A stretch of DNA of 64,000 nucleotides, from IMG/VR virus record IMGVR_UViG_3300043468_001049. One strand, given 5' to 3'. Below, in pieces: positions 28,754-57,585 of this stretch. The DNA is from an uncultured virus (IMG/VR IMGVR_UViG_3300043468_001049). Lineage: Duplodnaviria; Heunggongvirae; Uroviricota; Caudoviricetes. The position numbers and the translations under genes were made by a program. The notes below the pieces were generated by a model. That model saw nothing but the letters and a program-made list of their open reading frames with translations, did not search any database and was not told the origin of the DNA. Within the stretch, counting starts at the first letter, position 1, and the number at the start of each line of letters is the position of its first letter.

Positions 28754-31700
28754 ATGGATTTTAATGTAGAACCGTTTTATGACGATTTTGAGGCTTCCAA
28801 CGGAGCCAAAGATCAGAATTATATGAGAGTATTATTCCGTCCTGGATATGCAGTTCAGGCACGTGAACTTACTCAAATTCAGTCCATCGTTCAAAATCAA
28901 ATTAAGAGTTTTGGTGACCATATCTTTAAAGACGGTTCTCCAGTTTACGGTGGGCAAATTACTCTTGATACAAACGCAAACTATCTTAAACTTCAAACAA
29001 CCTATAACGGAATTGACGTCGAAGCTGCAGATTTCGCAAATACCGTAATCTCAAATAGTTCTGGCACTTCGAAAATTCGAGCAAGAGTTGTTTCAGTAGA
29101 TGAAACTCAAACACAGCCAACATTGATGGTTCGCTATCTTCGCGGAAATCAATTTGCGAATGGCGACGTCATTCAAGCAACAACCACGCAAGGAACAACG
29201 TTTGCTCAATTATCTGCTGATAGTGCTTCTGGTAAAGGCTCAGTTGCCTCTATTGACGAAGGTATCTTTTATGTTGATGGATATTTCGTTAAAGTTAGTC
29301 CGCAAACTATCGTTTTAGATCCATATGGTAACACACCAACATATAAAATTGGTCTTGAGATCGACGATAATATTATTGATGAGTCTGAAGATACAAATCT
29401 TTTAGACCCTGCGCAAAATTCATTCAACTATCAGGCTCCAGGTGCATGGCGTTATCAATTTAGATTAAATCTAGCAAAACGAGAACTCACATCTGTTGAC
29501 GATGAGAAGTTTTTTGAACTAGTTCGTGTTGAAAACGGACTCATCACAAAACAAGTTCGTTATCCAATTTACTCAGAACTAGAAAATACTCTTGCTCGCC
29601 GCACTTATGACGAATCTGGCGACTATACAGTTCGCCCATTTGGTGTTTCTCTTTCCGCAAACACAGCATGTAATGATACATTTATTATTAATGTTGAACC
29701 AGGAAAGGCATACGTTAAAGGGTTTGAATATGAGTTTGCTGGAACGCAAAAAATTGAAGTAAACAAAGCCAGAACAACAAATACATCAACAGATTACGAT
29801 CTTTCAGTTGAGTATGGCAAGTATGTTTATGCGAATACGATCACTGGATCTTCTTCAGGATTGTTTAATATCGCTAAACTCGATGTGATTGATCTTCACT
29901 GCGTCCCTCAAGTAAACGTATCAGTTTCAACTATTGATGCATATAATACAACTTATATGGGTTATGCGAGAATTCGCAACTTTAGAAGAGACAGTTCAAC
30001 AGAATATCTTGTGTATCTAACTGATATTAATCTTGTATCAAATACCGTAACTGCAGCAGCAACTGCTGTAAATGCAAACTCTATTGTGTTCCCTGCAGGA
30101 TACTCTGATCTAAATGATGCATACGCTAATGTAAGCGTAAGAGTGTTGAGTGGTGGTGCAAGTAACGTATCTGCTGGCGATGTTCGTAAGATCGTAAGAT
30201 ATGATGGTGCTACAAAGACTGCATTTACAGATTTAAACTTTACTGCACTCATCGGTAGCGGTAACACAGTTTCTCTCTTGTATAGCACAAAAGATATTGA
30301 TTCATTGGTTGAAGCACCTGCTGCAAAGACATCTTATAATGTTAAGATGAATATCTCGAATAGCAGTAAAGATATTACAAATGCAACAATCATCTCTGAT
30401 GAAAATAGAGATTCATTGTTGTTCATGCTACCAGATAATTATGTTTCTTATGGATCAATCACCAATGCTGACTTTAATAGCATGAAGGTGTTTGAAGATA
30501 AGTCATTCACTTCAAATGGTCAGTTAGCACTAACTCTTGCTGGCAATGAGACATATGGTTATGGTTCAGATGGAAGTTTCTTATCTGCAACCTCAGCAAA
30601 TGCTAACATTATTGTAATGGTCAAATCTCTTGGAACTGCATCAAACGTTGTAGTTGGTCAAATATTGAATTTAACTGCTGCGGTGGGTCCAGGTGGTGGC
30701 GGTCGTGGAGTTGCTGTTCGTAGAGATTCATCAACACAATTGACAATTTTCAGTGGTGAATTGGGAACATTTACTGCAGACATTTATGCTGTAGTGAAGG
30801 TCAATGATTCAGAATCAGCCACAAATAATCGTAGAACAAAAACGATTCGTGGAAACGCTGCAAACACTACGCTTTTAGCAACCGATAGTTATCTAAATGC
30901 TACACAAGTTACAGGTTGCACATCAGTAAGAATTGACACGACAAATGGTCATGTTTGGTTTACAAATACCAGCTTTATTAATAAAACTCCTGGTGGCAAT
31001 AACTCACTATTCATTCCAGACGTTTATAAGATCATAAAGATCTATGATTCTGGAAGCGGAACTCAAGAACCAACAGCAACAAATGCAATTGATATTACGA
31101 GTCGTTTCTATCTAGATTCTGGTCAAACTCTTGGAATGTATGATCATTCTAAGATTGTATTGAAACCAGGTGCCTCTGCCCCACGAGGACAGACTGTTGT
31201 GATGTTGCAATATTATGAACATTCATCAGCAATTAATGGATACTTTGATGCAGATTCTTACCCATCGGCTCAATATGCAAATGGAACAATTCCAACGTTC
31301 ATAACTTCTGATGGAACAACATATAATCTTCGTGATGCGATTGACTTCCGCCCTACGAGAGATATTGGAACAAGTTCGAGCGTTGCTTCATATACCTTTG
31401 TTGGTATGAAAAATCCAATGCCAGATGATCCAATGGAATTGACATATTCATATTATGTTCCACGTGTTGATAAACTTATTTTGACAACAGAAGGCGAATT
31501 TAAAACTCTCACTGGTGTTGCGGGTAAGTATCCAATTCCTCCTGTGGATACAGAAGATGGAATGACATTGTTTAGAGTTGACATTCCTGCATATACTGCA
31601 AATGTTAACAGCATCAAACTTACAAAGGTAGACAATAAGCGTTATACAATGCGTGACATTGGAACGCTAGAAAATCGTATTCGCAATATTGAATACTACA

Positions 31701-32302
31701 CCTCATTGAGTATCGCTGAGAAAAAAGCAACTGATGCTCCAATTTTGTACGAAGATAATGCTACAGAAAAGGAAAAGTATGGTATTGTTGCAGATAATTT
31801 CACAGGATTTAATGTTGCTGATACGTTAAATGCAGACTTCAAGTGCTCTTTAGAAAAGGGTAAACTTTCTGCTTATAATAATTTGAAACATATTCCTCTC
31901 GAAGTTAGCACAATTGGTGCAAATACTAAGAGAAATTCAAAAACTGTTTCGCTTGATTATACAGAAGAAGTTATTGTTCAACAAACAACAGCGACTGCAA
32001 ATGTGACTGTTCAGCCATATTTGTATGGAACATTTATTGGGCAATTAACTCTTTCGCCACAAAGCGACAGCTGGTTCTCTGAGAATCAAGCACCAATTCC
32101 TGTATCTCCAACATCGCCAGTTCCAACAATTGATGCGCCTGTTCCAGTTGTCGGTCCGCAAAATACAATTACCACAAATCCACGTAATCCATTTGGATTT
32201 GCACCAATTGTCTTGACTCAAGAGGATTGGTTCCGCAGAGGTGGCGGTATGGCAAATGCGTTAAATAGAGCGCAGGAACGAGTAGAAGAATTAGCACCGT
32301 AG
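28754..32302 (+). CDS. large virion structural protein (DUF4815/VrlC-like, N-terminal part)
   Basis: FNV.P.YDDF, VLFRPGYAVQARELTQ.Q, LARRTYDESGDY, KRYTMRDIG.LE.RI..IEYYTSLS. Confidence 0.85.
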   Translation: MDFNVEPFYDDFEASNGAKDQNYMRVLFRPGYAVQARELTQIQSIVQNQIKSFGDHIFKDGSPVYGGQITLDTNANYLKLQTTYNGIDVEAADFANTVISNSSGTSKIRARVVSVDETQTQPTLMVRYLRGNQFANGDVIQATTTQGTTFAQLSADSASGKGSVASIDEGIFYVDGYFVKVSPQTIVLDPYGNTPTYKIGLEIDDNIIDESEDTNLLDPAQNSFNYQAPGAWRYQFRLNLAKRELTSVDDEKFFELVRVENGLITKQVRYPIYSELENTLARRTYDESGDYTVRPFGVSLSANTACNDTFIINVEPGKAYVKGFEYEFAGTQKIEVNKARTTNTSTDYDLSVEYGKYVYANTITGSSSGLFNIAKLDVIDLHCVPQVNVSVSTIDAYNTTYMGYARIRNFRRDSSTEYLVYLTDINLVSNTVTAAATAVNANSIVFPAGYSDLNDAYANVSVRVLSGGASNVSAGDVRKIVRYDGATKTAFTDLNFTALIGSGNTVSLLYSTKDIDSLVEAPAAKTSYNVKMNISNSSKDITNATIISDENRDSLLFMLPDNYVSYGSITNADFNSMKVFEDKSFTSNGQLALTLAGNETYGYGSDGSFLSATSANANIIVMVKSLGTASNVVVGQILNLTAAVGPGGGGRGVAVRRDSSTQLTIFSGELGTFTADIYAVVKVNDSESATNNRRTKTIRGNAANTTLLATDSYLNATQVTGCTSVRIDTTNGHVWFTNTSFINKTPGGNNSLFIPDVYKIIKIYDSGSGTQEPTATNAIDITSRFYLDSGQTLGMYDHSKIVLKPGASAPRGQTVVMLQYYEHSSAINGYFDADSYPSAQYANGTIPTFITSDGTTYNLRDAIDFRPTRDIGTSSSVASYTFVGMKNPMPDDPMELTYSYYVPRVDKLILTTEGEFKTLTGVAGKYPIPPVDTEDGMTLFRVDIPAYTANVNSIKLTKVDNKRYTMRDIGTLENRIRNIEYYTSLSIAEKKATDAPILYEDNATEKEKYGIVADNFTGFNVADTLNADFKCSLEKGKLSAYNNLKHIPLEVSTIGANTKRNSKTVSLDYTEEVIVQQTTATANVTVQPYLYGTFIGQLTLSPQSDSWFSENQAPIPVSPTSPVPTIDAPVPVVGPQNTITTNPRNPFGFAPIVLTQEDWFRRGGGMANALNRAQERVEELAP

Positions 32303-32314
32303 TAGGTTTAAAAC

Positions 32315-35020
32315 ATGTTCGACGAATTTCCATTTAATTTTATATTCAATCCAAACCTAATCAATGGTTTGGATCCAAATGCGTTTTCGCCAGTTGAGCA
32401 ATCTAACGATCCAAATATCGTTACTCGATTTATTCGCGCAAACGAAGTTGTGTTTGTTGGCACATCGTTAACACCAGATAAAGTTCCTAACTTTTTCTTA
32501 GATGATGCAGTTGTCAATAATTTTGTACAGAAGTCAAATAGACTAGAATTAAATGCTGCAAATAACGCAAGCATCTTCGTTCAAGGTGAGGGCATTGTTG
32601 ATATTACAACAAATGCATATGCTCGTGTTCTTGCAAGCTCGAATAATATTCTATATTTGAATCAAAACTTTTTAACTGTGAATATCGCTGCTTATGGTGC
32701 CAACTCACTAAATGACAATGATTATGCTGTAAATGATATTGTTATTCAGAGAGCCAGTGGAACAAGTGGTGTAACAACTTTCCGTGGTCGCGTTCAATAC
32801 TATGATCGTGCAAATGGTGTTCTTGCCATCTCTCCTTCTGATGGTGCTATGAATGCATATGGTGCTGTGGCAAATAGTGTTATTTCAAAATTGAACAGTG
32901 CAGTTCTTACAAATGCTGCATCATTCATTCGCGGAAACACGTTTAGAGCTGGCAACAGAGTTCGTGGTGCTGCGAATGTGTCAAATACTGGATTGATTGT
33001 TTCTCTTGATCATGCTTCTGGTGTTTATACTGCAGCAAATGGCACCAACACTCTATCAATTCTTGTTCAAGCCAACTCAATTAATTCTGTTGGAAACACT
33101 CTTATCATCACTTCTGGAACTGGACAAAACACTGTAAGAGAAATTCTTGCAGTTCATGGTACGAATCATAATGAACTTCGTCTCAATGCTACAGTTACAT
33201 TGAGTTCAAATTCTAAGTATACATTTGGCACTCACGTGGTTGATGAATTTGGTCGCATCACTGGTATCTTTAATATTCCAGAAACTGAAAGTGCTCGATT
33301 CCCAGCAGGTGAGCGTATCTTCACAATCACTGATACGGAAGGTGCTCAAAATAACTTCTTCTCAATGCGTGCAACTGCGACATATAATGCAGTTGGTGCG
33401 CCACCAGTTATTCCACCACCTGTATTTGTCCCACCACCTGTTCCACAAAGAAGAAGAGATCCTCTTGCTCAAACATTCTTTACGCCAGAAGTTGATGTGC
33501 AAGTAAATGGCGCGCCTAAATTTAATTATGGCATTTATGTGTCATCTGTCGACTTGTTCTTTGCTGGTAAGCCAATTCTAGCAGATCTTCAACTTCCTAT
33601 TACAGTTGAACTTGTAACTGTGGTGAATGGAATTCCAACACAAAATGTGATTGCTGCTAAATCAGTAGAATGTCGTGATGTTAAAACGTCATTGATTCCA
33701 GATGCATCAAATACCAGCACAATTACCAACTTTAAGTTTGATGATCCAGTATATTTGGAACCAGAAACAGAATACGCTATTGTTGTGAAGTCTGATTCTC
33801 CAGATTACTATGTGTTCATCTCTGAACTCGGCGGAAGTGTTCTTGGTGCAAATCCACCACGTCGTGTTTCTCAGCAGCCATATCTTGGCTCATTGTTTAA
33901 ATCACAAAACTCATCAACGTGGACACCAATTCAAAATCAAGATTTGATGTTCCGCATTAAGAAGTGTGTCTTTACGCCAAATACTGGTGGCACGGTATTG
34001 TTTAAACCACAAAATCAATTTGCCAATGTGAATATTGATTCTATTTTGATGCACACAACACTGTTAACAAAGAAACCAACAGTTGCAAACTTTAAGTTTA
34101 AATCGAACAACGTTTCTAACGTACAAGATGCTCAGTTCACCTATATTCCTGTCAATTCACGATATAGTTTTGGTGCTGATTTGTTGACATCAACCGCAAC
34201 ATCAAATCGCCGTCGTCGAATTATAGAGGGTGATACAGGATCATTTATTGCTGGTGTTGATTTAAATACGACAGACGCAGACGTATCGCCAATTGTAAAC
34301 ATTGAGCGCATCAGTGCTGTTGCTTATGAAAACGATATCAATGATGGAAGTATTTCAAATACTGATATTAGCATTACTTCTGTTGGAACGCATACTGACG
34401 CTGGTGACATTACAGTTACAATTTCTGCTCCAGATTTAGCAGATGGCATTCAAGCAAATGCATATGTTTCTGCTCTATCTAGCAATGGTGTTAGCACAAT
34501 TATTGTTGACAATTCAGGTTCTGGATATATTACAACTCCAACGATTACTTTCTCAGAGGCTGTAGCATCATCAAATGCAACCGCTGTGATTGCTGGTGAA
34601 ACAGGATCTTCTGGCGGTAATATGAAGGCTCGCTATATCACGAAACAGATTAGTCTTGCTGACGGATTTGATGCAGGTGATCTTCGTGTTTATATTGACG
34701 TCAATCGTCCACGTGGAACTAATGTTCACGTCTATTACAAAGTTAAATCAGCATCAGATCCTGAAAACTTCGAGTTGAAGAAGTGGAAGTTGATGAATAA
34801 GGTTCTTGATACCTATTCTGCAGATCAGAGCGAGGTTATTGAACTCGAATTTAGACCAAATCTTGAGAAAAACGTTCTTTCATATGTTGAGAATGGCGTT
34901 GTATATCCTCTTGGTGGTACGTTTAAATACTATGCTATTAAGATTGTGATGTCCGCTGCAGATCCAACTGTTGTTCCAACAGTTCTAAACTTTAGAGCAA
35001 TTGCAACACCATCAGGATAA
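32315..35020 (+). CDS. virion structural protein (DUF4815-like, C-terminal part)
   Basis: DPLAQTF, VDLFF, F.FDDPVYL, QPYLGSLFKSQNSSTW, YITKQI.L, final R.IA. Confidence 0.8.
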   Translation: MFDEFPFNFIFNPNLINGLDPNAFSPVEQSNDPNIVTRFIRANEVVFVGTSLTPDKVPNFFLDDAVVNNFVQKSNRLELNAANNASIFVQGEGIVDITTNAYARVLASSNNILYLNQNFLTVNIAAYGANSLNDNDYAVNDIVIQRASGTSGVTTFRGRVQYYDRANGVLAISPSDGAMNAYGAVANSVISKLNSAVLTNAASFIRGNTFRAGNRVRGAANVSNTGLIVSLDHASGVYTAANGTNTLSILVQANSINSVGNTLIITSGTGQNTVREILAVHGTNHNELRLNATVTLSSNSKYTFGTHVVDEFGRITGIFNIPETESARFPAGERIFTITDTEGAQNNFFSMRATATYNAVGAPPVIPPPVFVPPPVPQRRRDPLAQTFFTPEVDVQVNGAPKFNYGIYVSSVDLFFAGKPILADLQLPITVELVTVVNGIPTQNVIAAKSVECRDVKTSLIPDASNTSTITNFKFDDPVYLEPETEYAIVVKSDSPDYYVFISELGGSVLGANPPRRVSQQPYLGSLFKSQNSSTWTPIQNQDLMFRIKKCVFTPNTGGTVLFKPQNQFANVNIDSILMHTTLLTKKPTVANFKFKSNNVSNVQDAQFTYIPVNSRYSFGADLLTSTATSNRRRRIIEGDTGSFIAGVDLNTTDADVSPIVNIERISAVAYENDINDGSISNTDISITSVGTHTDAGDITVTISAPDLADGIQANAYVSALSSNGVSTIIVDNSGSGYITTPTITFSEAVASSNATAVIAGETGSSGGNMKARYITKQISLADGFDAGDLRVYIDVNRPRGTNVHVYYKVKSASDPENFELKKWKLMNKVLDTYSADQSEVIELEFRPNLEKNVLSYVENGVVYPLGGTFKYYAIKIVMSAADPTVVPTVLNFRAIATPSG

Positions 35021-35021
35021 T

Positions 35022-35246
35022 ATGAAAATTAAAGTTAAAGATAGAAGTGATCTTGTTCGAGATTCGCAAACAATGGCAATCTTGAATGTTGACAAAAATG
35101 TATTAAATAAAGATCTTCTATATAAACAAAAAATGCGTCGAGAAAAACAAGTCGACGAGGCGATAAATAAACTAGAAAATGATGTAAACGAAATAAAAGG
35201 TAATCTGAATAAAATACTTCAGATACTTGAGACTAGAGGTCCGTAA
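35022..35246 (+). CDS. small conserved T4-like protein
   Basis: KVK....LVRD..T.AILN plus C-terminal coiled coil; ATG 35022. Confidence 0.7.
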   Translation: MKIKVKDRSDLVRDSQTMAILNVDKNVLNKDLLYKQKMRREKQVDEAINKLENDVNEIKGNLNKILQILETRGP

Positions 35247-36670
35247 TGGCTAATGCAAATATTTCAACAGTTGTCGTAACCAACACCTTTGATGAGTGGC
35301 GAGTCGCTACAAATGATTTGATTGCAGATCGTAACACTTTACGAAATACAAATTATGTCAAAGATGGCGGTAATTATGCGATCGCAAATGGCGTTTTAAG
35401 TGTTCAAAAAGACGGTGGTGGTACTGTTTTTTCTGTTGCGAATGACGCTTCAATTAGCGGTAATGCGACCATCAACAGATTAACTGTTACAACAGGTATT
35501 AATGCTGCAGTGATAAATGCAACAACTGCAGTAAATTCAACATCATTCATCACAACAGCTGGATTAAATGTAACGAATCAGGCTAACCTTGCGCGAAATC
35601 AGGCAAACGCTGCATATGATATTGCAAATACTGCCAGAGATCAAGCGAACACTGCGCGTGATACCGCAAATACTGCCTCTGAAACTGCTAGTATTTCTGC
35701 AAATAGTGGTTCTACTTTAACCAGTAAAAAATTAAATTTCATCAACACTTCAAGTATTCTTGTGAGTGTCACTGATGCATTAGACGGAAATGCAAATATT
35801 TCTCTTCAAACGAGTTTTGCAAGTCCTAGTGATGCGTATGATCAAGCAAACACTGCTCGTAATACTGCGAACGCTGCCTATGAAGCCGCAAATACTGCTG
35901 GTGGCGGTGCTCCATATGATCAAGCAAACACCGCCCGAGATCAAGCAAATACGGCACGTACACAAGCAAACACGGCACGCGATCAAGCGAATACTGCACG
36001 TGATACAGCGAATATTGCATATGGACAAGCCAACAGTTCATATGATCGAGCAAATGGTGCCTATGGTCAGGCTAACGGCGCATACGCTCATGCGAACATT
36101 GTTTATGCTCAAGCCAACACTTCCTATGACCAAGCGAATACTGCATATAATCAAGCCAATACTGCTCGCACTACTGCAAACGATTCTTACAGTCAAGCCA
36201 ACACAGCGCGTGATCAAGCCAATACTGCTCGAACCACAGCCAATGATGCTTATGGTCAAGCAAATACTGGAAGCACTCAAGCAACTGCTGCTAGAGATCA
36301 AGCCAATACTGCTAGAGATCAGGCAAATACTGCTCGCAATACAGCCAATGGTGCATATGGACAAGCCAATGGTGCATATGCTCAAGCAAACACATCAGCA
36401 AATACAGTTCGTGTTTCCGCAAATCTTGGATCCACATTATCAGCAAAACAACTTAACTTTAATAATACATCAACAATTCAAGTGAATGTATTAGACGGTG
36501 GTGGTGATGCTGCTGGAAATGCAAATGTAACATTCTCAGTAATTGGTGGTCTCTTAAGTGCAAATGCATGGAAACATGCAACAGCAACTTATGATAGCGC
36601 CAACGTATACATCTCTGCCACTGCACCTGCCTCTGGAAATCAAAAGGGTGACATCTGGATTCAATTTTAA
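35246..36670 (+). CDS. fibre protein with ANxAxxQ heptad repeats
   Basis: TNTFDEWR..TN N-terminus, ANTARDQ/ANGAYGQ heptads, C-terminal P.....GDIWIQF. Confidence 0.75.
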   Translation: MANANISTVVVTNTFDEWRVATNDLIADRNTLRNTNYVKDGGNYAIANGVLSVQKDGGGTVFSVANDASISGNATINRLTVTTGINAAVINATTAVNSTSFITTAGLNVTNQANLARNQANAAYDIANTARDQANTARDTANTASETASISANSGSTLTSKKLNFINTSSILVSVTDALDGNANISLQTSFASPSDAYDQANTARNTANAAYEAANTAGGGAPYDQANTARDQANTARTQANTARDQANTARDTANIAYGQANSSYDRANGAYGQANGAYAHANIVYAQANTSYDQANTAYNQANTARTTANDSYSQANTARDQANTARTTANDAYGQANTGSTQATAARDQANTARDQANTARNTANGAYGQANGAYAQANTSANTVRVSANLGSTLSAKQLNFNNTSTIQVNVLDGGGDAAGNANVTFSVIGGLLSANAWKHATATYDSANVYISATAPASGNQKGDIWIQF

Positions 36671-40200: not shown

Positions 40201-40949
40201 TGGCTTATACAACTGGTGGTGCATCTACAGTCAAAGAATTAATTATCGATAATAACTCATTTATTGATAATCGTGCTTCGCCACAAATGCAATATGGGAT
40301 TAGATTATCTGGTGATTGGACAGTTAATAATCTTTGGAGAGATGGGAACAAATACTATGGATCAACAGTAGCAGATTTTGATTCAACTGGAGCGGTTATC
40401 ACAAATACACGATCTGCAGATGGCGGTGGTGCAACTGGTCCGCAAGGCGCACAAGGTCCATCTGGTCCAACTGGTGCACAAGGCTCACAAGGACCAAGTG
40501 GACCAACATCAGGTGCTTCAAGCATCACGAATTTCACACCAACTTGGTATAATCAAGAATTTGGTTCTCCGCAAACAGCTGTAACGATTGGAAACGGAAA
40601 CAACGTTGGGTATTATAGTTTGAATGGAAATGAAGTTACAGTTGTCGCAACATTATTGTTGGGAAGTACAACAAGTATTGCCACCAAATCAACATCAGGA
40701 TATGTATATCTTGCATTACCCTTTGCCTCTGCTTATGCAGGATTAAGTTATAATGGTGTCTGGAGAATTTACGACGATAGTGTCGCTAAATTTTATAGTG
40801 GATCTGCGTTTGTCGATGGTGGTGGTAGTACTGTCTCTTTGGCTGTTGATAATGGTTTGTTCGTTCGAAATGCTGCAGGTTCTGAGAATCCTGTAAATTT
40901 TGCTGCGGGAGACGCATTGTCCGTGCAATTAACATATTTCAAGACATAA
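37260..40949 (+). CDS. collagen-like tail fibre/spike with pectin-lyase-like beta-helix domain
   Basis: long G-P-S/G-P-Q triplet runs; [16 protein letters not shown] tailspike neck; AAIDAA...LFIPAG.Y; Asn-ladder repeats. Confidence 0.85.
37495..38505 (+). repeat. collagen Gly-X-Y coding repeats (two blocks; a third near 40430-40510)
   Basis: ggtccatct/ggtccatca/ggtccacaa tandem units; identical 47-nt copies at 37794-37840 and 38397-38443. Confidence 0.9.
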
Positions 40950-40954
40950 TCAAC

Positions 40955-41010
40955 TTGATTTTGGCGTAAATTTAACGTAGAATATAGGGATGTTTCGATC
41001 CTTATAAATA
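40955..41010 (+). promoter_or_regulatory. tandem sigma70-type and T4 late promoters
   Basis: TTGATT(40955)-17 nt-TAGAAT(40978) and TATAAATA(41003). Confidence 0.6.
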
Positions 41011-41033
41011 TAAAAAAGATTTTTGGGATTACT

Positions 41034-42203
41034 ATGTCAGATTTAAATAAAACTTGGCTCCCTGGACCTTCGAGAGGAACGACTACCGTAACCTCTCCAG
41101 GAAACGTTACAATCCCATATGGTCGTTTTGTTGGTACAGTTTCAGGAAAGGGTGCTCCTGGAAACTCTCCAGTAACAGCAGGTTGGGTGACAAACTATAA
41201 CACCAATTATAATGTTGCGTATCCAATCGCCAATCAGCCGATCGCAAATCAGCCACTGGCGAATCAGCCAGCAACTGCTTGGACAACCAATTACAATACA
41301 AACTATAACACCAATTATAATGTTGCGTACCCAATCGCGAATCAACCAATCGCCAATCGTCCAATCGCAAATCAACCAGCAACTGCTTGGACAACAAACT
41401 ACAATACCAATTATAATACGAACTATTTCGTAACATATCCATTTGCTGGATTCGGTTTTGGACACTTCTCGTTTGGTGGAAATAATCCAGGTGTTTATTT
41501 CGTGAACTCTTATCGATATTGGACTTACGGTATCTATCAAAACCAAGCTGGTCCTCCAGGATATGTTCAAAGTACCAGTTACAACTTCGACGACTCTCAA
41601 TGTCCATCGCACTTTGCATTCGATCAAACAAATCCATTACAATATCAGTGGCACTGGGTTTACTTTCAATGCTGGCATCAATTTGCACCAGGAAATGCAT
41701 TCTTTTTCACAAATTACAATACAGAATATAACGTCGCATATCCTGTTGCAAATCAACCAGTGGCAAATCAACCAATTGCAAACCAGCCTATAACTGCTTG
41801 GACGACAAACTATAATACCAATTATAATACGAACTACAACGTTGCTTATCCAATTGCCAACCAACCAATCGCAACTCAGCCACTGGCGAATCAACCAATA
41901 ACTGCTTGGACGACAAACTATAATACAAATTATAATACCAACTACAATGTCGCGTATCCAATTGCGAATCAACCAATTGCAAATCAACCAGCCACAGGAT
42001 TTACTCCTGGAAACATTGGTGCTTCTGCTTCTGCTCTTGGTGTGACATTACCTGGCGGTGCAGTTGGTAATGTGATTGATGGTGGTCCAATTCCAGCGAC
42101 ACCAATTTCACCAACAACAGTAAGTTACTGGACTTACCCAGATAATTCAACATATCCTGTTACAGCCCCTTCTGGATCGGAAGTCGTAATTAAACTTGAA
42201 TAA
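41034..42203 (+). CDS. repeat protein (TNYN / PIANQ blocks flanking an aromatic-rich core), candidate virion adhesin
   Basis: repeat structure seen directly; late promoter; located in the fibre region. Confidence 0.7.
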   Translation: MSDLNKTWLPGPSRGTTTVTSPGNVTIPYGRFVGTVSGKGAPGNSPVTAGWVTNYNTNYNVAYPIANQPIANQPLANQPATAWTTNYNTNYNTNYNVAYPIANQPIANRPIANQPATAWTTNYNTNYNTNYFVTYPFAGFGFGHFSFGGNNPGVYFVNSYRYWTYGIYQNQAGPPGYVQSTSYNFDDSQCPSHFAFDQTNPLQYQWHWVYFQCWHQFAPGNAFFFTNYNTEYNVAYPVANQPVANQPIANQPITAWTTNYNTNYNTNYNVAYPIANQPIATQPLANQPITAWTTNYNTNYNTNYNVAYPIANQPIANQPATGFTPGNIGASASALGVTLPGGAVGNVIDGGPIPATPISPTTVSYWTYPDNSTYPVTAPSGSEVVIKLE

Positions 42204-42218
42204 TTAATTGAGAGTGGA

Positions 42219-42818
42219 GTGAATATTATGTTTAAGATTGATAAATTCAAAAGACAGTTTCCTAAATTCTGTCATGTTGAACAAGTCTTTTCTAAAGAAG
42301 AAGTAAAAAGAATTTATGATTTGGAAGATTTAGAAAAATTCCGAAGAGGAATGGTTGGATCTAATAATTCTGAAGGTGAGGTTAAACTCGAATCTCGAGA
42401 TTCTGAGATTATGTGGGTTAATCCTAATCATGAATCAGGTTGGATCTTTGATCGTTTTGCTCAAGTCTTAGCAAACGTGAACTATGATTTCTTCAATAGT
42501 AATATTAATCATATGGGTCCATTTCAATATACTCTTTATCGCGAAAATCAATATTATAACTGGCATGTTGATTCAGATTCCATGTATGCTGATTTAACTC
42601 GAAAAATTAGTGCAACAATTATGTTATCTGATGCTTCTGATTATGTTGGTGGTGAGTTCGAATTGATTGCAAATGGTAATGTGGAACAGCCAATAATGCT
42701 TCGACCAAATGCAGGTGATATTATTTTCTTCGCCTCTCACATGCCTCATCGTGTTCGAGCAGTTACACAAGGTGTGCGGAAATCGCTAGTGAATTGGATA
42801 TATGGACCATGGGATTAA
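42219..42818 (+). CDS. 2OG-Fe(II) oxygenase, prolyl-hydroxylase-like
   Basis: QYT.Y....YY.WHVD, RKIS..I.LS....Y.GGE, FF.S..PHRV..VT.G.RKSLV.W. Confidence 0.9.
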   Translation: MNIMFKIDKFKRQFPKFCHVEQVFSKEEVKRIYDLEDLEKFRRGMVGSNNSEGEVKLESRDSEIMWVNPNHESGWIFDRFAQVLANVNYDFFNSNINHMGPFQYTLYRENQYYNWHVDSDSMYADLTRKISATIMLSDASDYVGGEFELIANGNVEQPIMLRPNAGDIIFFASHMPHRVRAVTQGVRKSLVNWIYGPWD

Positions 42819-42828
42819 TGGATAAATT

Positions 42829-43575
42829 ATGGATCTCTCAAAGTTCACAAAACTCAAGTTTTGGTCAAATAACATCATTGAATTTTATTGTAGAAAAGAA
42901 TTCGAAGGTGTAATTCCTGAACCAAAACCAGCAGCGAAATACTTTCCAGAATGGTTTAAAAATCTAGAACCATACATTGCTGCTAGAGATAAAAGCAGTG
43001 GTGATAAAAGAATCATGACTGCGAAAAGATGTCTGCCTCTCATCGATGCAATGTCATTGGGTTTTGTTATCCCTCTTGCTGCTGATTGCCACGTTTTAAC
43101 AAATCATGACAATTCTCAAATACTTTTTAATGGATTGGCTGGATCATTCCCAATTATTGAATCTCATGATAAGCGACAAGTCGGAGGTCACAGCACAATT
43201 AAAAGAAATAATGGAGATGCTCTTAAATTCCTAAATTATTGGGTTGTGAAAACTGCTCCAGGATGGTCAAGCCTTTTTATTCCTCCGATTAATAATTTCT
43301 CACAGCCGTTTACCTGTTTAGGTGGAATGGTTGATACTGACAAATATACAAAAGAAGTGAATTTTCCAGCAGTTTGGCATGCTCATAATTTTGATGGAAT
43401 GATTTATGCAGGAACACCGCTTATTACTGTAATACCAATTAAAAGAAATATTTTTGATAAGAAACCTGTTATTCGAAAAATGACTAAAAAAGAACAAGAA
43501 ACTCATAATCAAATGAATCGAATTCAAAATAGTCGTCTTAGTTATTATACAAATGAGTTGAGGGTTAAGAAATGA
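42829..43575 (+). CDS. conserved phage hypothetical protein
   Basis: P.PA....PEWFK, T.KRC.P..DAM..G, W..KT.PG.S.LF..P, G.VDTD, GTPL...IP. Confidence 0.7.
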   Translation: MDLSKFTKLKFWSNNIIEFYCRKEFEGVIPEPKPAAKYFPEWFKNLEPYIAARDKSSGDKRIMTAKRCLPLIDAMSLGFVIPLAADCHVLTNHDNSQILFNGLAGSFPIIESHDKRQVGGHSTIKRNNGDALKFLNYWVVKTAPGWSSLFIPPINNFSQPFTCLGGMVDTDKYTKEVNFPAVWHAHNFDGMIYAGTPLITVIPIKRNIFDKKPVIRKMTKKEQETHNQMNRIQNSRLSYYTNELRVKK

Positions 43576-44357
43576 GATTTATTAAGTATTTTATGGGTGA
43601 TAATAATGACATTTTGGACAATGGCATTCATCCAAAAAAAGACGATATTGAGTTTATCTGTTTCATGGGTCAGGCTGCGTCTCATGAACAAACTCGAGTT
43701 AAACTTGCAAAAGAAGTCGACACAAAATTTAAAAAGTATCAAGTCGAAAAGCATGGATCGTACACCTTTGCTCAATGTCCAGGAATGTTAGATTATTCCC
43801 GTCTAGGATATATCATTCCAGCATGGACCAACTTTGAGTTCATGTACAACTCTGCAGGTGTAGAGATATTTGATGGAACAATCGATTCTAGAGTTCGCTC
43901 TAAAATTCCATTAAGAGGATTCGATCCAACTATTTTCGATGGCGCAATTAAAAACGACGATGGATCTAAAACTGAAATCTATAACATTCAAGCACCTTGG
44001 CATATTCGATGCAAGCCTGGAGTCCATATGATGATTATGCCTGCATTCTATCATAGCAATATTCTAGATGATTTTCATATCCTTCCAGGTGTTATTGATT
44101 ATGGTAGCGGATTTCATACGATTAATTTCTTAACTGGACCAAAGAGATATGGTCAGTTTAAGATTATGATGGGCGAGCCTCTATTCCACATCATTCCTCT
44201 CAAGAATGTCCCATTCACTGCTTCTTATGGACTTGTTGATAATTATAAAAATGTCTATAAAGAAGATGAGTTTTTTGGTAAAATTAAGAGTTTCTATAGA
44301 AAATTTTATTGCGGAAAGAGAAAATTCTCCTTACGAAAGGAGATGGGAGATAAATGA
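43572..44357 (+). CDS. conserved phage hypothetical protein, paralog of 42829..43575
   Basis: CPG..DY...GYIIPAW, PW....KPG, PG..D, GEPL..IIP align with the previous gene. Confidence 0.7.
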   Translation: MRFIKYFMGDNNDILDNGIHPKKDDIEFICFMGQAASHEQTRVKLAKEVDTKFKKYQVEKHGSYTFAQCPGMLDYSRLGYIIPAWTNFEFMYNSAGVEIFDGTIDSRVRSKIPLRGFDPTIFDGAIKNDDGSKTEIYNIQAPWHIRCKPGVHMMIMPAFYHSNILDDFHILPGVIDYGSGFHTINFLTGPKRYGQFKIMMGEPLFHIIPLKNVPFTASYGLVDNYKNVYKEDEFFGKIKSFYRKFYCGKRKFSLRKEMGDK

Positions 44358-45337
44358 AAACTATTTTCGTAAGCATTGCTTCATATAGAGATAAACTTCT
44401 TTTAGCAACTCTGAACTCATTAAGGCAAAATGAGTCTGGTCGAAATAAGATCGTTTATGGTGTTTTCGAACAGACCAAAAAAGAAGACAGTTTAGAGACA
44501 AAAGCACCAGAGTTGCTAGACAATGCTGCGATTCGATACAAAAGAATAGACCCAGAATATGCTGATGGAGTCGTCTGGGCTCGAGCAATCAACGCCATGC
44601 AGCACTATGATGAAGAGTTTTTCTATCAGATCGACTCTCATATGCTCTTTGATAAAGACTGGGATAACACTCTTTTGTGGGACTATCAACAAGCATCTAG
44701 GCTTGCAAATAACCCTAAAGTTATTTTAACAACAGGCACGAAGAATTTCGAGTATTTCTCAAATTATATCACAAAACATACACTAACTCGTGATATAACA
44801 GTGAATTTTAAGTATTGGCAATTTGATAAGGAATTATGTCTAAAGGTTCATGGTCCTTGGATTGCCGCGACTGATACTGTTGTTCCTGGAATCCATACGA
44901 TCGCAGGTAACTTTTTCGCACCTGCTACCTGGATTAAAGATGTCGGATTCAACACTAGATTGTTTTTTGAGTATGAAGAACAATATATGTCTCTTACATC
45001 CATATTGGCTGGATATAAAATCTATCATCAGAGAAAGATCCAATGCTATCATTATCTGGATTCTGCGAAATCAACAACTCGCCAAGAGAACGATCCAGTT
45101 CGTCCGTCGAAGATCTTTGACAATAAGAAGCGAGAGAAGGAGGAATTTATCAATTATATATACTCTTTAGGTGAGGAGAAACTTGAAGAATATCGAAGAT
45201 TGACAGGAGTTGATTATATAAATAGAAAATTAGAAGAGCGCGCAATCACCAGAACCGTTCCTCCAACAATTCCTGTTGATTGGGAATTGCCTCAACCACC
45301 AGAACCAGCAAAAGACGAAGAGAAAAATGAGCCTTGA
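44354..45337 (+). CDS. GT60-like GlcNAc transferase (Skp1-hydroxyproline/polypeptide GlcNAc-T family)
   Basis: TIFVSIASYRD, G..EQ, GV.WAR, E...QIDSHM.F...WD, AGNFF, F..EE. Confidence 0.82.
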   Translation: MKTIFVSIASYRDKLLLATLNSLRQNESGRNKIVYGVFEQTKKEDSLETKAPELLDNAAIRYKRIDPEYADGVVWARAINAMQHYDEEFFYQIDSHMLFDKDWDNTLLWDYQQASRLANNPKVILTTGTKNFEYFSNYITKHTLTRDITVNFKYWQFDKELCLKVHGPWIAATDTVVPGIHTIAGNFFAPATWIKDVGFNTRLFFEYEEQYMSLTSILAGYKIYHQRKIQCYHYLDSAKSTTRQENDPVRPSKIFDNKKREKEEFINYIYSLGEEKLEEYRRLTGVDYINRKLEERAITRTVPPTIPVDWELPQPPEPAKDEEKNEP

Positions 45338-46372: not shown

Positions 46373-48982
46373 ATGAAGGTAACGGTTGGATCAAATAGTA
46401 ATACATCATTCCAACCAGCAACAGACAGAGGTTCTGGTGCTGCCATAACTGTCAATCCACCTGCAGGTTCTACTGTTAAAATCTCAACAGTTGGTGGTGC
46501 TGGCACAGGACCTGCATACGATCAAGCAAACATTGCTAGATCTACTGCGAATAGTGCTTATGGACAAGCCAACGCTGCATACAATGCGGCAAATAGCGCC
46601 AAAGTCACGGTGTATGCAAATAGTGGTGCAGCCAACGCAACCACACAAAATATTAATTTTGTAAACACATCGTCGATTCTTGTCACAGTTGCAAATACAA
46701 ACGGAAATGCAAATATTTCGTTTGCAGTCACTGGTGCTGCTGCTGGTGATGCGTATGATCAAGCAAATGCGGCAAGAGACCAAGCAAATACAGCACTTAA
46801 TGTTGCTAATGGCGCATATAGTCAAGCCAACGGAGCATATGCCCAAGCAAATGGTGCTTACTCGCAAGCAAACGGAGCATATAATCAGGCTAATGGTGCA
46901 TATGCTCAAGCCAATGGTGCATATGCTCAGGCTAATGGAGCATACTCTCAAGCAAATAGTGCTTACAATCAAGCCAATGATGCATACAGTCAAGCGAATG
47001 CTGGATATGCAACTGCTAATGCGGCTTATGCGACAGCAAACACTAAATTAAGTTTATCTGGTGGTACAATTACAGGACCAATTAGTGGATTAGGAAATTC
47101 TAAACTAGACCTTACTACTTTCGGAGCCAACACCGCATATCTAACAACTACTGATAATGATTCTACTGCATTGTTTATGGGAGCGGTGTCTGCTGAGTTA
47201 TACGCTAATACATATGTTCAAATTAGAGCCAATACTGGAGGAGCATCACAAAACTGGACATTTGGTGCAGATGGTACATTAACATTTCCAGACACAACAG
47301 TACAAACTACAGCCTTTACAACCGAATTAACTAATGCAATCTCAAATACGGTATCAACTGTATCGACAATTGCAAATGCCGCATACGATAAAGCAAACAC
47401 TGCACTAGATATCGCGAACGGCGCATATGGTCAAGCCAACGTTGCGCGCACTACTGCAAACGATGCATATGATCAAGCGAATACCGCTAGAAACACTTCC
47501 AACAGCGCATATCTACAAGCAAATAATGCTTATGATACAGCCAATTTAAAACTTAATATTTCTGGTGGAACCATTAATGGTTCATTGAATATCAGTGGAA
47601 ATTTATTTGTTAGTGGCAACACATCATATATTAATGTTTCAACATTTGTTGTTGATGATGCATTAATTTATCTCGGCGCAAATAATACTCTTAGCGATGT
47701 TGTTGACATAGGATTTATTGGTGCGAAAAACAGTGGTCCATCAGTAACTCATACTGGTCTTGTTCGTGATGCTGGAGATGGTACTTGGTATTTGTTCGAT
47801 AATTTGCCAGATTCAGGTCATCAAAATAACGTAGTTGATTTTGCAAACACCACGCTTGCAACACTTCGAGCAAATATCGCTGCAAATAGTATTCTTTTAG
47901 TTGGAAACGTCGTTGCTACTCAAGCCAACTTAACTCTTGCGTTCAATCAAGCAAACACGGCGAGAACAACTGCCAACGATGCATATGGACAAGCCAATTC
48001 TGCTAGAGACCAAGCGAACACCGCTAGAGATCAAGCCAATACCGCCAGAAATCAAGCAAATTCAGCCTACGCAGATTCTAATACTCGAGTCTTAAAATCT
48101 GGCGATACAATGACAGGTCAATTGAACATCAGTTCAGGTGGCTTGATTGTTACTGGTAATATTACCACAACAGGAGCAAGTGGTGATATTAGTGGCGTTA
48201 ATACAATATATGCTGGAACTTTCTCAACAACTGCTGGGTTGAATGTAACTGCTCAAGCAGCAAATGCATACGATCAGGCAAATAATGCCAGAAATCAAGC
48301 GAACACAGCTCGCGATCAAGCGAATACCGCCAGAACAACGGCGAATGATTCTTATGGCGCAGCAAATACAGCAAACACTAATGCATTAAATGCTTATGCT
48401 CAAGCCAATGCCGCTTATGATGCAGCCAATAATGCTAAAATAACGGTATTCCAGAACAATGCTTCAGGAATAACCACTCAAAATCTAAATTTTGTCAATA
48501 CATCAACTGTAACTGTAAGTGTTCAGAATAGTAGTGGAAACGCAAATATATCATTCACCTCTATCGGTGGTGTTCAAGATTATTCTTATAATACGACTTC
48601 AACCTCTACCGAAACTGTAGATTCGTGGTCAACTACAGCCTTCCGAAGCGGTAAGTATCAAATTCAAGTCTCCAGCTCTGTGGGTTATTTGACTTGCGAG
48701 ATCGCTCTGCTTCATGCAGGAAATGTCACAAACATGTTACAGTATGGAAACGTTTCTATTGGTGCACCAGTTGGCGTATTCACATCGGATGTAAATAACG
48801 GTAATGTTCGTCTTCGATTTGCAGCAACCGACATTACGACAAGAATTAGATACTTCAGATCATTGTTAATTAATGATTCTGGATTCGACCCAGAAGTTCT
48901 CCCAACAGATCTCATGACTGGTATCGACACATACGATCTGATGGAAGTTCTCTACCTCATACCGACAGATCTAAATGCATAG
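46373..48982 (+). CDS. modular fibre protein with ANxAxxQ heptads
   Basis: heptad runs separated by KL..SGGTI.G and VLKSGDTMTG necks; C-terminal D.W....FRSGKY.IQ domain. Confidence 0.8.
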   Translation: MKVTVGSNSNTSFQPATDRGSGAAITVNPPAGSTVKISTVGGAGTGPAYDQANIARSTANSAYGQANAAYNAANSAKVTVYANSGAANATTQNINFVNTSSILVTVANTNGNANISFAVTGAAAGDAYDQANAARDQANTALNVANGAYSQANGAYAQANGAYSQANGAYNQANGAYAQANGAYAQANGAYSQANSAYNQANDAYSQANAGYATANAAYATANTKLSLSGGTITGPISGLGNSKLDLTTFGANTAYLTTTDNDSTALFMGAVSAELYANTYVQIRANTGGASQNWTFGADGTLTFPDTTVQTTAFTTELTNAISNTVSTVSTIANAAYDKANTALDIANGAYGQANVARTTANDAYDQANTARNTSNSAYLQANNAYDTANLKLNISGGTINGSLNISGNLFVSGNTSYINVSTFVVDDALIYLGANNTLSDVVDIGFIGAKNSGPSVTHTGLVRDAGDGTWYLFDNLPDSGHQNNVVDFANTTLATLRANIAANSILLVGNVVATQANLTLAFNQANTARTTANDAYGQANSARDQANTARDQANTARNQANSAYADSNTRVLKSGDTMTGQLNISSGGLIVTGNITTTGASGDISGVNTIYAGTFSTTAGLNVTAQAANAYDQANNARNQANTARDQANTARTTANDSYGAANTANTNALNAYAQANAAYDAANNAKITVFQNNASGITTQNLNFVNTSTVTVSVQNSSGNANISFTSIGGVQDYSYNTTSTSTETVDSWSTTAFRSGKYQIQVSSSVGYLTCEIALLHAGNVTNMLQYGNVSIGAPVGVFTSDVNNGNVRLRFAATDITTRIRYFRSLLINDSGFDPEVLPTDLMTGIDTYDLMEVLYLIPTDLNA

Positions 48983-49041: not shown

Positions 49042-52000
49042 ATGCCAACAACATTACAATTTAGAAGATACGATACAGCAAATATTGCCAATACAACTGG
49101 TGCTGTTGGTGAAATCTTCATTGATATGGATAAAGACACTATCGTTGTTCAGGATGGTGTTACTTCTGGTGGATTTCCTCTGGCTAGAGAGTCTGCTCTT
49201 ATTTCTGCATATGGTGGTGCTAATGCAGCCTACGATCAAGCCAACAGTGCTCGAGATCAAGCCAATACTGCCAGAGACCAGGCAAATACTGCTCGAACAA
49301 CCGCCAACGATGCGTACAATACAGCAAATACAAAACTTTCAAGTTCTGGTGGAACAATCAGTGGAAATCTTGTAATTTCTGGAAATTTAGAAGTTTTAGG
49401 AAATAGCACCACACTTAATGTTGAAACTCTTCTCGTTGAAGATAATGAAATTGTTCTAAATGCGAACGTGGTCGGCGCACCATCATTAAATGCGTTCATT
49501 ACGGTAAATCGCGGATCAAATCAAAATTCAGCTCTAGTTTGGTCTGAAGTTGGAATTGGGTATTGGGGTTGGTCTGACGGTGATGGAGTTATCTACTTCG
49601 ATTCGTTAAGAGCAGCCACTGTTGCAACAAATACTGCTCTTAATCAAATAAACGCAACAATTGTCAATGTTAACACAAATGTTGCCACAGTTTATGATCA
49701 AGCAAATGCCGCTCGCAATCAAGCAAATACGGCTAACACTAATGCGAGTACCGCCAAAGGACAAGCAGATATAGCTCGAGATCAAGCGAACGTTGCTCGT
49801 ACGACTGCTAATGATTCATATGGTCAAGCGAACACTGCTAGAGACCAAGCAAACACCGCACGCGATACTGCTAATGGAGCATACGACCAAGCAAATGGTG
49901 CGTATGGTCAGGCTAACGGCGCATATGCTCATGCAAATATTGTTTACGATCAAGCGAATACTGCTCGTAATCAGGCAAATACTGCGCGAGACACAGCAAA
50001 CGGCGCATACGATCAAGCAAACGCAGCATATGGCGACGCCAATACTCGAGTGTTGAAGGCTGGCGATACAATGACTGGTGCACTAAATGTACAGTCAAAT
50101 GTAACAGCTGTTGGATTCTTGAGCAGCAAAACAACTCTTCAAGCACCAAGCACCACAAACTTTAATGGTGAACGTGTTCGTCTTTATGACTTTAACGAAG
50201 CAGGTCACCCAAACTATGCAATTGGCGTTGAAACAAACTTTATTTGGAGTGGCACAGACGAAAATAACGGTCAAACTGGTTTCGCGTGGTATGGAAATAC
50301 TACACGAAATGCTATTATGCGTTCCAATGGTACGTTGCAATTAAGCAATACTGTTGAAGCAAAAGTTATTCGCGCTAATGGTACTGGCACTGCAATTGAT
50401 GCAAGTCAAGGTAACATTCTAACAAATGAAGTCACTGGTACGAAGTTTAAATTCCTTGCTGGTGCAAATACAGTAACTGTTGATGCCTCTGGTGCTCTAG
50501 CAAATTACACATTTAATCTACCGCCAACAGGTGGTGTTGCTGGTCAAGTGCTTGAAACAGATGGTAATGGAGACACTATTTGGAGCAGTAACGTTTATTC
50601 ATTGACGAATACAGTTTATGATCAAGCAAATACTGCTAGAAACCAAGCCAATACTTCCAGAGATCAAGCAAATACTGCTAGAGATCAGGCGAATAGTGCT
50701 ACTGTTATTGGTGAGAATGCATACGCTCAAGCCAATACAGCTCGAGATATTGCCAATGCATCTTATGGTCAAGCAAATGCTGCATATGATGATGCAAATA
50801 CCAGAGTATTGAAATCTGGCGATACGATGACAGGAACATTAAATGTCGCTGCGTCATTAATCACACAGAACATTGTTCCAAATCTAAATGTAACTTACGA
50901 CATTGGTACAGCTGATAAAAGATTCAATGATCTTTATCTTTCAAACAGTTCTATCTATCTTGGTGATGCAGTTCTAACTGCAAATGGTCCAGTTCTTGTT
51001 GTTTCTGGAATTGAAATTGATGGAAGTGGAAATCTAGTTGCTGCATTCGAGTCATATAATCAAGCCAATGCTGCCAGAGATCAGGCGAATACTGCCAGAG
51101 ATACTGCGAATGGAGCATACGGTCAAGCAAATGGTGCTTATGCTCATGCAAACATCGTATACGATCAAGCAAATACTGCACGTGACGCAGCTAATGCATC
51201 TTATGGGCAAGCGAATGCCGCTAGAGATCAAGCGAATACGGCTCGCGACGTTGCCAATGCATCTTATGGACAGGCAAACACTGGAAGCACTCAAGCAACT
51301 GCCGCCAGAGATCAAGCGAACGTTGCTCGTACAACTGCAAATGATTCTTATGGACAGGCGAACACTGCTAGAGATCAGGCTAATACCGCACGCGATACTG
51401 CTAATGGAGCATACGACCAAGCAAATACTGCTCGTGACACTGCAAACAGTGCTTACAATGCAGCAAATAACGCACAAGTAACTGTTTACGCAAACAGTGC
51501 TTCTGATGTCACAACTCAGAAAATCAACTTTGTTAATACCTCCACGATTACCGTATCAGTAACAAATAGTGCTGGGAATGCAAACATTGCATTCACGGCA
51601 ACTGGTGGTGCTGCTTACGATCAAGCCAATGCTGCTTACGATCAAGCAAACACTGCACGTAGTACTGCAAATGATTCTTATGGACAAGCAAACACTGCTC
51701 GCGATGTAGCAAATGCTTCTTATGGTCAAGCAAATACCGCCAACACCAATGCATTGAATGCTTATGATCAAGCAAATACTGCCAGAGACCAAGCGAATAC
51801 TGCTCGAACAACAGCTAATGATTCATATGCTCAAGCGAATACCGCTCGCAATACTGCAAACGACTCATATAGCCAGGCAAATACTGCTCGCAACACTGCT
51901 AATGATTCGTATGGACAAGCCAATACTGCTAGAGATACAGCCAATGGTGCGTATGGACAAGCGAATACTGCTCGTGATACAGCCAATGATGCTTATGGTC

Positions 52001-56822: not shown

Positions 56823-57584
56823 ATGGCGCAGCCTTCCACACGCACAGAATTAAAAGACTATTGTCTTCGAAAACTCGGATTCCCAGTTATTGATATTAAC
56901 GTTGATGACGATCAGCTCGAAGATCGTATTGACGATGCATTACAACAATTTCGAAACTATCATTTCGACGGAATTGAGAGAACTTGGTTAGCGCACCAGC
57001 TAACCGCAGGAGATATTACGAACAAATATGTTCAACTTGCTGACTCTATTATCGGAGTTTCAAAAGTATTTCCATATACTGGATCTACTCAATCTTCAAC
57101 ATCATCAGCAGGATTTAACATTTTTGATATTAATTATCAGCTTCGTCTTAATGACTTCTACAATCTAACATCTTCTTCCTACACTTATTATGTCATTGCT
57201 CGCGAGCATCTCTCAATGCTTGATATGATTATTACAGGCGAATATCCATATACTTTTAACAAAGTAACTGGAAAATTAAATTTTCAAATTGATATGGATA
57301 ATCGATTTAAACCTGGAAACTACATGGTGTTTGAGTGCCTTAGAGTTGTTGATGCAGAAGCCTACAGCAAAGTTTTTAATGATCTTTGGCTCAAAGCATA
57401 TACAACTCAATTGTTTAAACGTCAATGGGGCGAAAACTTGAAGAAGTATGATAATTACGTTCTTCCAGGTGGTCTAGTTATAAATGGTCAGAGAATTTGG
57501 GACGAAGCATCAATTGAAGTTGAAAAACTCGAAGAAAAACTTCGTGATACTTACGAAGAACCAATTCCATTTTTAGTAGGCTAA
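56823..57584 (+). CDS. 13: neck protein gp13
   Basis: LKDYCLRKLG.PVI.INVDDDQ..DRID, KRQWG.NL.KY....LPGG. Confidence 0.93.
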   Translation: MAQPSTRTELKDYCLRKLGFPVIDINVDDDQLEDRIDDALQQFRNYHFDGIERTWLAHQLTAGDITNKYVQLADSIIGVSKVFPYTGSTQSSTSSAGFNIFDINYQLRLNDFYNLTSSSYTYYVIAREHLSMLDMIITGEYPYTFNKVTGKLNFQIDMDNRFKPGNYMVFECLRVVDAEAYSKVFNDLWLKAYTTQLFKRQWGENLKKYDNYVLPGGLVINGQRIWDEASIEVEKLEEKLRDTYEEPIPFLVG

Positions 57585-57585
57585 A

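Follow-up and report, generated by a model that had tools for sequence, protein, structure and literature searches.

In the part of the published account of phage T4 gp37 used here (PMC6957217), domain D10 comprises residues 811-881 and 1010-1026, with domain D11 inserted, and D11 consists of a stem (residues 882-931 and 960-1009) and a tip, with seven iron ions along the needle. The protein considered here, P0001 (389 aa), is encoded by an open reading frame (ORF) within a 64,000-nt stretch, hereafter called the window, of the uncultured virus IMGVR_UViG_3300043468_001049 (IMG/VR; Caudoviricetes). The gp37 needle (D10-D11) is the closest known design to P0001; the likeness is one of design and not of membership. 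As far as that part of the gp37 account extends, the two are alike in a base formed from both termini, an out-and-back stem (predicted in P0001) and a tip in mid-sequence, and the needle is, as P0001 would be, a fibre module of a T4-like phage. P0001 is probably a fold-back, tip-bearing virion protein of a T4-like lake myovirus, with a receptor-binding role and with two arms that pair antiparallel within the chain.

Several features separate the two designs. No sequence similarity was found (the profile of family alignment A2, searched against PDB chains, returned two unrelated enzymes with E 0.15-0.16), and gp37 was not among the 50 VIA or 20 Foldseek matches listed for the P0001 model. When the P0001 base was considered against the collar-fold base of gp37, gp12, gp10 and gp11, neither gp37 nor gp12 appeared among the 50 VIA matches, the best of which (Z 5.3, to assorted jelly-rolls, beta-sandwiches and phage tail domains) was within the noise range of the tool. 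To the extent that the same portion of the gp37 account covers them, the other differences are as follows. The His-x-His motif of the gp37 iron sites is absent from P0001 and present in the parsed arms of 1/69 family members (22 His among 14,368 arm residues); the stems of the P0001 family measure 88-333 residues per arm against about 50 in gp37, and are up to six times longer; they are composed, unlike that of gp37, of two unit types with complementary block counts; and P0001 is a free-standing protein, whereas the gp37 needle ends a 1026-aa fibre.

Adhesins of the gp38 type present glycine-rich motifs in a polyglycine-II sandwich and are not known to have out-and-back arms. As generally described, those of T2/T6/S16-like phages resemble P0001 in being encoded by a small separate gene beside a fibre gene, and in having conserved repetitive motifs that flank hypervariable receptor-binding segments. 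Pfam, PHROGs and NCBIfam gave no family for P0001, which the preliminary description of this locus had not recognised as a described family, and no Pfam match to the N-terminal base was obtained for 32 members at E values up to 5. No account of the family was found in the open-access full texts and bioRxiv preprints searched, and the design of counted blocks in a folded-back chain was found neither in these libraries nor in this literature.

The arms were segmented into four-residue units ending in Y, F, W or H (Y4) and five-residue units starting with P (P5), which were chained strictly from each base. With a block of n such units abbreviated as nY or nP, the gene and its product are divided as follows:

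41034..42203, plus strand: whole P0001 ORF, 389 aa, single copy in the 172,991-bp phage record
41034..41174, plus strand: N-terminal half of the base domain, residues 1-47 (predicted beta strands in the AlphaFold2 (AF2) model; family identity)
41175..41438, plus strand: arm 1, outward, residues 48-135, blocks 4Y 4P 4Y 4P 4Y (unit segmentation; tandem repeats)
41439..41483, plus strand: degenerate Gly/Phe units PFAGF, GFGHF and SFGGN, residues 136-150 (read from the sequence)
41484..41693, plus strand: aromatic-rich tip, residues 151-220, with C190 at 41601-41603 and C213 at 41670-41672
41706..42002, plus strand: arm 2, returning, residues 225-323, blocks 3Y 4P 4Y 4P 4Y 3P in sequence order (unit segmentation; tandem repeats)
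42003..42200, plus strand: C-terminal half of the base domain, residues 324-389 (AF2 confidence; family identity)

The plan of P0001 is therefore a 47-residue N segment, arm 1, an 89-residue core (residues 136-224), arm 2 and a 66-residue C segment; the first Y4 unit of arm 1, TAGW, is a linker. The block counts of the preliminary description, which had been based on TNYN (N) and PIANQ (P) repeats (2N 3P 3N 3P 3N outward, 2N 3P 3N 3P 3N 2P returning), were correct, with slight degeneracy (TNYF, TEYN). Tandem Repeats Finder detected a 108-nt (36-aa) unit in both arms, with 2.1 copies in arm 1 (41190-41416, 87% matches) and 2.6 copies in arm 2 (41709-41990, 82% matches), and sub-periods of 12 nt and 15 nt inside it; arms 1 and 2 are direct copies of one 36-aa super-repeat. 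Among the 108 codon pairs from three full super-repeats, 44 were identical, 40 differed synonymously and 24 differed in the residue (about 10 of these 24 fall beyond the end of the arm), so the copies are old and have been held in frame at the peptide level.

Block counts were compared between the arms, arm 1 being taken outward and arm 2 in reverse, with each block set against one of the opposite unit type. In P0001, 4/4 interior block pairs were equal under this mirror rule. The counts on which the preliminary description had based its mirror balance thus stood, but they carry no weight as evidence on their own: all interior blocks of P0001 have the same size, so such a balance follows from any direct duplication. 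An ordinary tandem-repeat solenoid with a domain inserted midway, the balance being a by-product of duplication, would also fit the uniform counts and directly copied 108-nt units of P0001, and relatives were therefore needed to settle the question.

Relatives were collected from large protein collections (68 relatives and 42 cluster representatives, all metagenomic, E values down to 1.5e-99) and from IMG/VR (24 loci of the family). All full-length members are built alike, with two arms around a variable core and with conserved segments at the N and C ends. P0001 matches the N segment (..TW.PG..R.T.TF..PG..TIPYGR..G.VSG.G..GN) and the C segment (..PGN.G....LGV.FPGG ... YPV.VP.GGQI.V.IE) of the family, and residues Y29, G30, G38, G43, G336, P340 and G341 are invariant in family alignments A1 and A2.

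The block counts of many relatives are irregular and are mirrored nevertheless. P0004, for example, reads 3P 3Y 3P 2Y 3P 2Y outward in arm 1 and 3Y 3P 3Y 2P 3Y 2P backward in arm 2, and irregular counts are mirrored likewise in P0007, P0009, P0010, P0017, P0020, P0021 and P0028. In a first set of 37 distinct patterns, 104/122 interior block pairs (0.85) were equal under the mirror rule, against 50/118 in forward order and 14/35 to 44/71 in shifted registers. Addition of ORFs from related loci gave an enlarged set of 122 distinct sequences, 69 of which were parsed into 51 patterns. Here 259/279 interior pairs were equal, including 93/113 of the informative pairs (those with at least one side other than 3), and the forward-order control stayed at chance level (141/272), which bears out the expectation that the copy numbers of the two unit types would co-vary across the arms of homologs. 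A solenoid is thereby rendered extremely unlikely, since the irregular relatives follow the mirror and not the direct order, and duplication cannot turn 2Y 3P into the mirror-placed 3Y 2P of P0004, P0007 and P0010. Because duplication cannot yield a swapped and reversed series, the simplest explanation is that the arms pair antiparallel, and we infer that the mirror covariation reflects such pairing physically.

The rule holds at very different lengths. In L012_7989 (849 aa), each arm has 28 blocks of two or three units in irregular succession, and 26/26 interior pairs are equal; other series, equally exact, occur in relatives that have 16, 20 and 22 blocks. P0001 is the only member seen with four-unit blocks, and these stand 4:4 in both arms and for both unit types. 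The number of units per arm ranges from 7 to 74 in the family, correlates between arms (Pearson r 0.967) and agrees within 2 units in 45/58 proteins. The nearly identical P0009 and P0019 show a compensatory paired indel, with a length difference of 22 aa (3Y+2P) between their first arms and of 23 aa (2Y+3P) between their second. Both observations uphold the suggestion of the preliminary description that stalk length is tuned by paired expansion. The degenerate Gly/Phe units at residues 136-150 possibly form the innermost rung, opposite FTNY NTEY NVAY; comparable Gly/Phe stretches are found at the same place in P0011, P0029, P0031, P0037 and P0066.

The terminal segments, which had been expected to meet at the base, are modelled in one base domain. 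AF2, run with the family alignments, gave predicted local distance difference test scores (pLDDT) of 89-97 in two stretches of P0001, residues about 11-50 and about 321-389 (90-95 for residues 11-40 and 89 for residues 41-50 in the N segment, both as beta strands), and both terminal segments of the relative P0008 were predicted with equal confidence. The VIA alignments, 64-99 residues long, extend over model residues 10..389, which is consistent with both termini belonging to one beta-sandwich domain. No match at E <=0.001 was returned by Foldseek with the P0001 model against PDB or by the search of BFVD. Comparison of the N-terminal base with BFVD by Foldseek gave many weak matches (31-54 columns, root-mean-square deviation 1.7-5 Å, 20-39% identity, E 0.3-3), the targets being proteins of giant viruses and of phages, cyanophages among them, that are named 'glycine-rich domain-containing' or 'virion structural'. 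The ESM Atlas contains P0001 (model pLDDT 0.31) and yielded no usable match.

The arms might instead pair between chains, arm 1 of one subunit with arm 2 of another, in a swapped or intertwined oligomer. Mirror complementarity fits pairing within a chain and between identical chains alike, and the stem of the T4 gp37 needle is, in the part of PMC6957217 concerned with it, built jointly by the trimer. The AF2 models, however, place the N and C segments of a single chain together in one confidently predicted domain, and the loop would therefore be closed within the chain. Tandem paralogs of the family (two per locus, 500-854 aa) occur in 14/20 related loci, and there the arms fit their own partner in 259/261 pairs and the neighbouring paralog in 58/120, a result with which homo-oligomers are still compatible. 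(The phage of the window has one copy; no second was found when all ORFs of the window were searched with profiles for the two halves of the base.) A homotrimer prediction with three copies of P0008 (299 aa, alignment A2) scored 0.00 with an uncertain fold of the partners, and is evidence neither way. On balance, pairing between chains is considered unlikely.

The core between the arms evolves much faster than the base: median pairwise identity in the family is 0.22 for the core, 0.53 for the N half of the base and 0.51 for the C half, in agreement with the variable core proposed earlier. In P0001, 26/89 core residues (29%) are F, Y or W, and the core holds the only two Cys of the protein, C190 and C213, as had been noted. 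Throughout the family Cys are confined to the core (none outside it in 58/58 proteins) and are even in number in 57/58, with two in 37 proteins, four in 12, six in 3, none in 5 and three in 1; C190 is conserved in at least 90% of 46 sequences. This pattern fits a fast-evolving knob that may be stabilised by a disulfide. L017_7989 and L022_248 are alike almost letter for letter in base and arms, and their tips are unrelated (two Cys in one, none in the other).

A genuine fold-back stalk could also do something other than bind a receptor: it might act as a strut or as a length ruler, sense in the manner of a whisker, or help to assemble the neighbouring fibres. Such a role would suit the small, single gene of this phage and the conservation of the base, which points to a conserved docking partner. 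Against this stand the low identity of the tips and their exchange between otherwise identical proteins, a hypervariable and swapped tip being the usual mark of host-recognition parts, as well as the position of the gene within the host-recognition cluster described below; a role of this kind is therefore given an outside chance, somewhat better than that of pairing between chains. If the tip is the exchangeable and host-specific part, a receptor-binding fibre or fibre-tip adhesin is the most likely role of P0001.

The following mechanism is proposed for P0001 as an antiparallel fold-back protein. It would belong to the late proteins in the virion of a T4-like lake myovirus, and its chain would begin in the small beta-sandwich base, go outward as arm 1, form the variable, Cys-bearing tip, and come back as arm 2 antiparallel to arm 1 to complete the base. 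The register would be set by the two unit types, n Tyr-ending four-residue units lying opposite n Pro-starting five-residue units, and the length of the stalk would change only if both arms changed together. A period of four would keep the face of a beta strand constant, with Asn on one side and Thr/Tyr on the other; a period of five would need one bulge per unit, for which Pro is the natural site, so that five residues could span a four-residue register. If bulged blocks alternated between the arms, the ribbon would stay straight and the arms nearly the same length. About 20 units of 13-14 Å would give P0001 a stalk of roughly 25-30 nm, and the relative with 74 units one of about 100 nm; a ribbon about 100 nm long would probably need several chains side by side. 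A bolder and more tentative version of the proposal, possible but doubtful as a whole, is a programmable two-stranded ribbon of 7-74 rungs with a 4-mer/5-mer register, paired indels, an exchangeable tip cassette for host range, and Pro residues that the downstream oxygenase and glycosyltransferase would hydroxylate and modify with GlcNAc; as a component of this same joint reading, with the same reservation, the ribbon might be regarded as a protein analogue of a nucleic-acid stem.

Random expectation was approached by permutation. Exchange of partners in the 37 patterns gave 0.47 on average and 0.63 at most (0/2000 permutations reached the observed 0.85), and within-protein shuffles in the enlarged set gave a mean of 180 and a maximum of 202 (0/5000 reached 259), counts that are not probabilities because the block patterns are related by descent. 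That relatedness weighs against the fold-back proposal, and so do the points collected in this paragraph. The mirror is imperfect in 16/51 patterns; most of these stop at an irregular token, and P0011 fits by eye if degenerate units are allowed. The preliminary description had regarded uncorrelated repeat numbers as contrary to its interpretation; across the family the numbers are correlated, but five relatives are clearly unbalanced, namely P0002 (13 v 41 units), P0003 (13 v 22), P0006 (19 v 10), P0012 (28 v 12) and P0026 (16 v 12), and the near-identical P0003 and P0006 differ in how their arms are unbalanced. P0002 and P0012 resemble deletion derivatives of balanced relatives. All five lie on short contigs (3-12 kb), on which near-identical repeats can collapse; mis-assembly of the repeats may explain them, or the genes may be defective, or the blocks in surplus may pair among themselves locally. 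Close relatives show one clean compensatory event and several one-sided ones. Residue-level mutual information across the arms in the true register did not exceed that at a shift of two blocks, and any code between the arms appears to be limited to unit type and number. Searches of cultured phages by tblastn, with the whole of P0001 and with its C-terminal 70 aa, gave no match. Finally, the AlphaFold monomer models, which had been suggested as a check, were confident for the base termini but not for the stalk: in P0001 and P0008 the arms and tip had pLDDT <50 (the P0001 tip below about 55). An earlier count, made over total arm lengths with a loose regular expression, had looked like a refutation (Spearman 0.36; arms equal within 5 aa in 16/65) and was withdrawn, since a divergent subfamily had been mis-segmented and TTWS-type linkers had been counted as units. 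With all of this taken together, the fold-back interpretation given in the preliminary description is supported.

Low confidence of the arms in AF2 and ESM models would be expected of an extended, mostly unstructured protein rich in Pro, Asn and Tyr, modified by the products of adjacent genes and devoid of a paired stalk. Such a protein would recall the extensin-like hydroxyproline-rich glycoproteins (PF02095), which share short Pro/Tyr-rich repeats with P0001, and the genes that adjoin P0001 encode a prolyl-hydroxylase-type oxygenase and a glycosyltransferase, a cassette that always follows the family gene. The match to Extensin_1 (PF02095; E 0.0034) is compositional only, with 17.6 bits against a cut-off of 105 in 1/32 members, and P0001 has no Ser-Pro runs. 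Disorder moreover offers no cause for the block-by-block mirroring, for which the forward control remained at chance, and modification can coexist with a paired stalk; a mostly unstructured protein of this kind is accordingly considered very unlikely, if a little less so than a solenoid.

The following features adjoin the gene:

41003..41010, plus strand: TATAAATA, late-promoter-like motif, 24 nt before the P0001 ATG
42219-42818, plus strand: 2OG-Fe(II) oxygenase (PF13640; Pfam, PHROGs; weak NCBIfam matches to PKHD-type hydroxylases)
42829-43575 and 43572-44357, plus strand: two DUF6065/phrog_7084 proteins (Pfam, PHROGs)
44354-45337, plus strand: PF11397 GlcNAc-type glycosyltransferase (Pfam, PHROGs)

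The motif TATAAATA, which we take to be the T4-type late-promoter consensus, occurs on the plus strand at 21990, 41003 and 48997, in each case 25-45 nt ahead of the start of a structural gene; its total in the window (7 against 4.0 expected) is not significant as a count. The cassette 42219..45337 begins 15 nt past the P0001 stop, with no terminator-like site between 42203 and 42219, and its order is kept behind the family gene or genes in 19/19 non-identical loci that extend downstream. PF11397 is presumably the family of the Skp1 hydroxyproline GlcNAc-transferase, which would fit a pathway of Pro hydroxylation and glycosylation. On the strength of this gene order we put forward as a hypothesis that the oxygenase/glycosyltransferase cassette is functionally linked to P0001 and modifies its Pro units. 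One locus (L021) has an extra pair of oxygenase and DUF6065 genes upstream of the family gene.

The record is a complete virus genome of 172,991 bp, and the window contains T4-type baseplate, neck, terminase and sheath genes. The P0001 gene sits between VrlC-like genes (28754-35020) and gp13/gp14-like genes (56823-58470), an interval that, in the portion of PMC7029224 drawn upon, is occupied in pelagimyophages by the 'host recognition cluster'; by its position, the P0001 gene is assigned to the host-recognition cluster of a T4-like myovirus. The sheath protein is nearest to those of Pelagibacter phage HTVC008M (53.6%) and Methylophilales phage Melnitz. A cyanophage label was considered and was unsupported, psbA (PF00124) being absent from the phage record. 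Given the sheath and the absence of psbA, the virus is therefore regarded as a lake relative of the pelagimyophages and not as a demonstrated cyanophage. A megablast search with 8 kb from the baseplate region against cultured phages gave no match.

Directly upstream of P0001 (37260-40949) lies the gene of a 1229-aa collagen-repeat tail fibre protein (PF01391, E 1.4e-17), which has four stretches of G-P-S / G-P-Q triplets with Pro first after Gly. Further fibre-like proteins are encoded at 35246-36670 (474 aa), 46373-48982 (869 aa) and 49042-54435 (1797 aa); they consist mostly of seven-residue repeats of the QANTARD / QANGAYA type, with globular parts between them.

Phage host choice is set by receptor-binding fibres, which are mostly unannotated in the abundant T4-like phages of lakes and oceans. 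For the P0001 family, stalk length and tip would be readable from sequence alone, the complementary repeat blocks giving the length and the tip being a swappable cassette. Should the pairing rule hold physically, this would be one of the few proteins with a long-range fold deducible from the covariation of repeat counts, and a simple scaffold of tunable length. The prolyl-hydroxylase-type and Skp1-type glycosyltransferase genes, commonly filed as auxiliary metabolic genes, would likewise gain a candidate virion substrate.

P0001 was found with 100% identity on 4 further IMG/VR contigs. The interval 40900-42400 is covered by Logan contigs from 4 lake-water runs, all of these runs being marked as possible sources of this DNA; the main contigs show 0 differences, and arm 1 is bridged by overlapping short contigs and by no single one. 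No RNA run is listed among the sequencing runs that carry the P0001 stretch. Relatives of the family co-occur in these waters: the same lake runs contain low-depth contigs that are 90-95% alike at 41190-41420 and 41900-42000 and run on into units of the PEAAR type. On the minus strand, long antisense ORFs (116-197 aa) extend across the repeats at 41107-41987, and are probably by-products of stop-poor repeat DNA.

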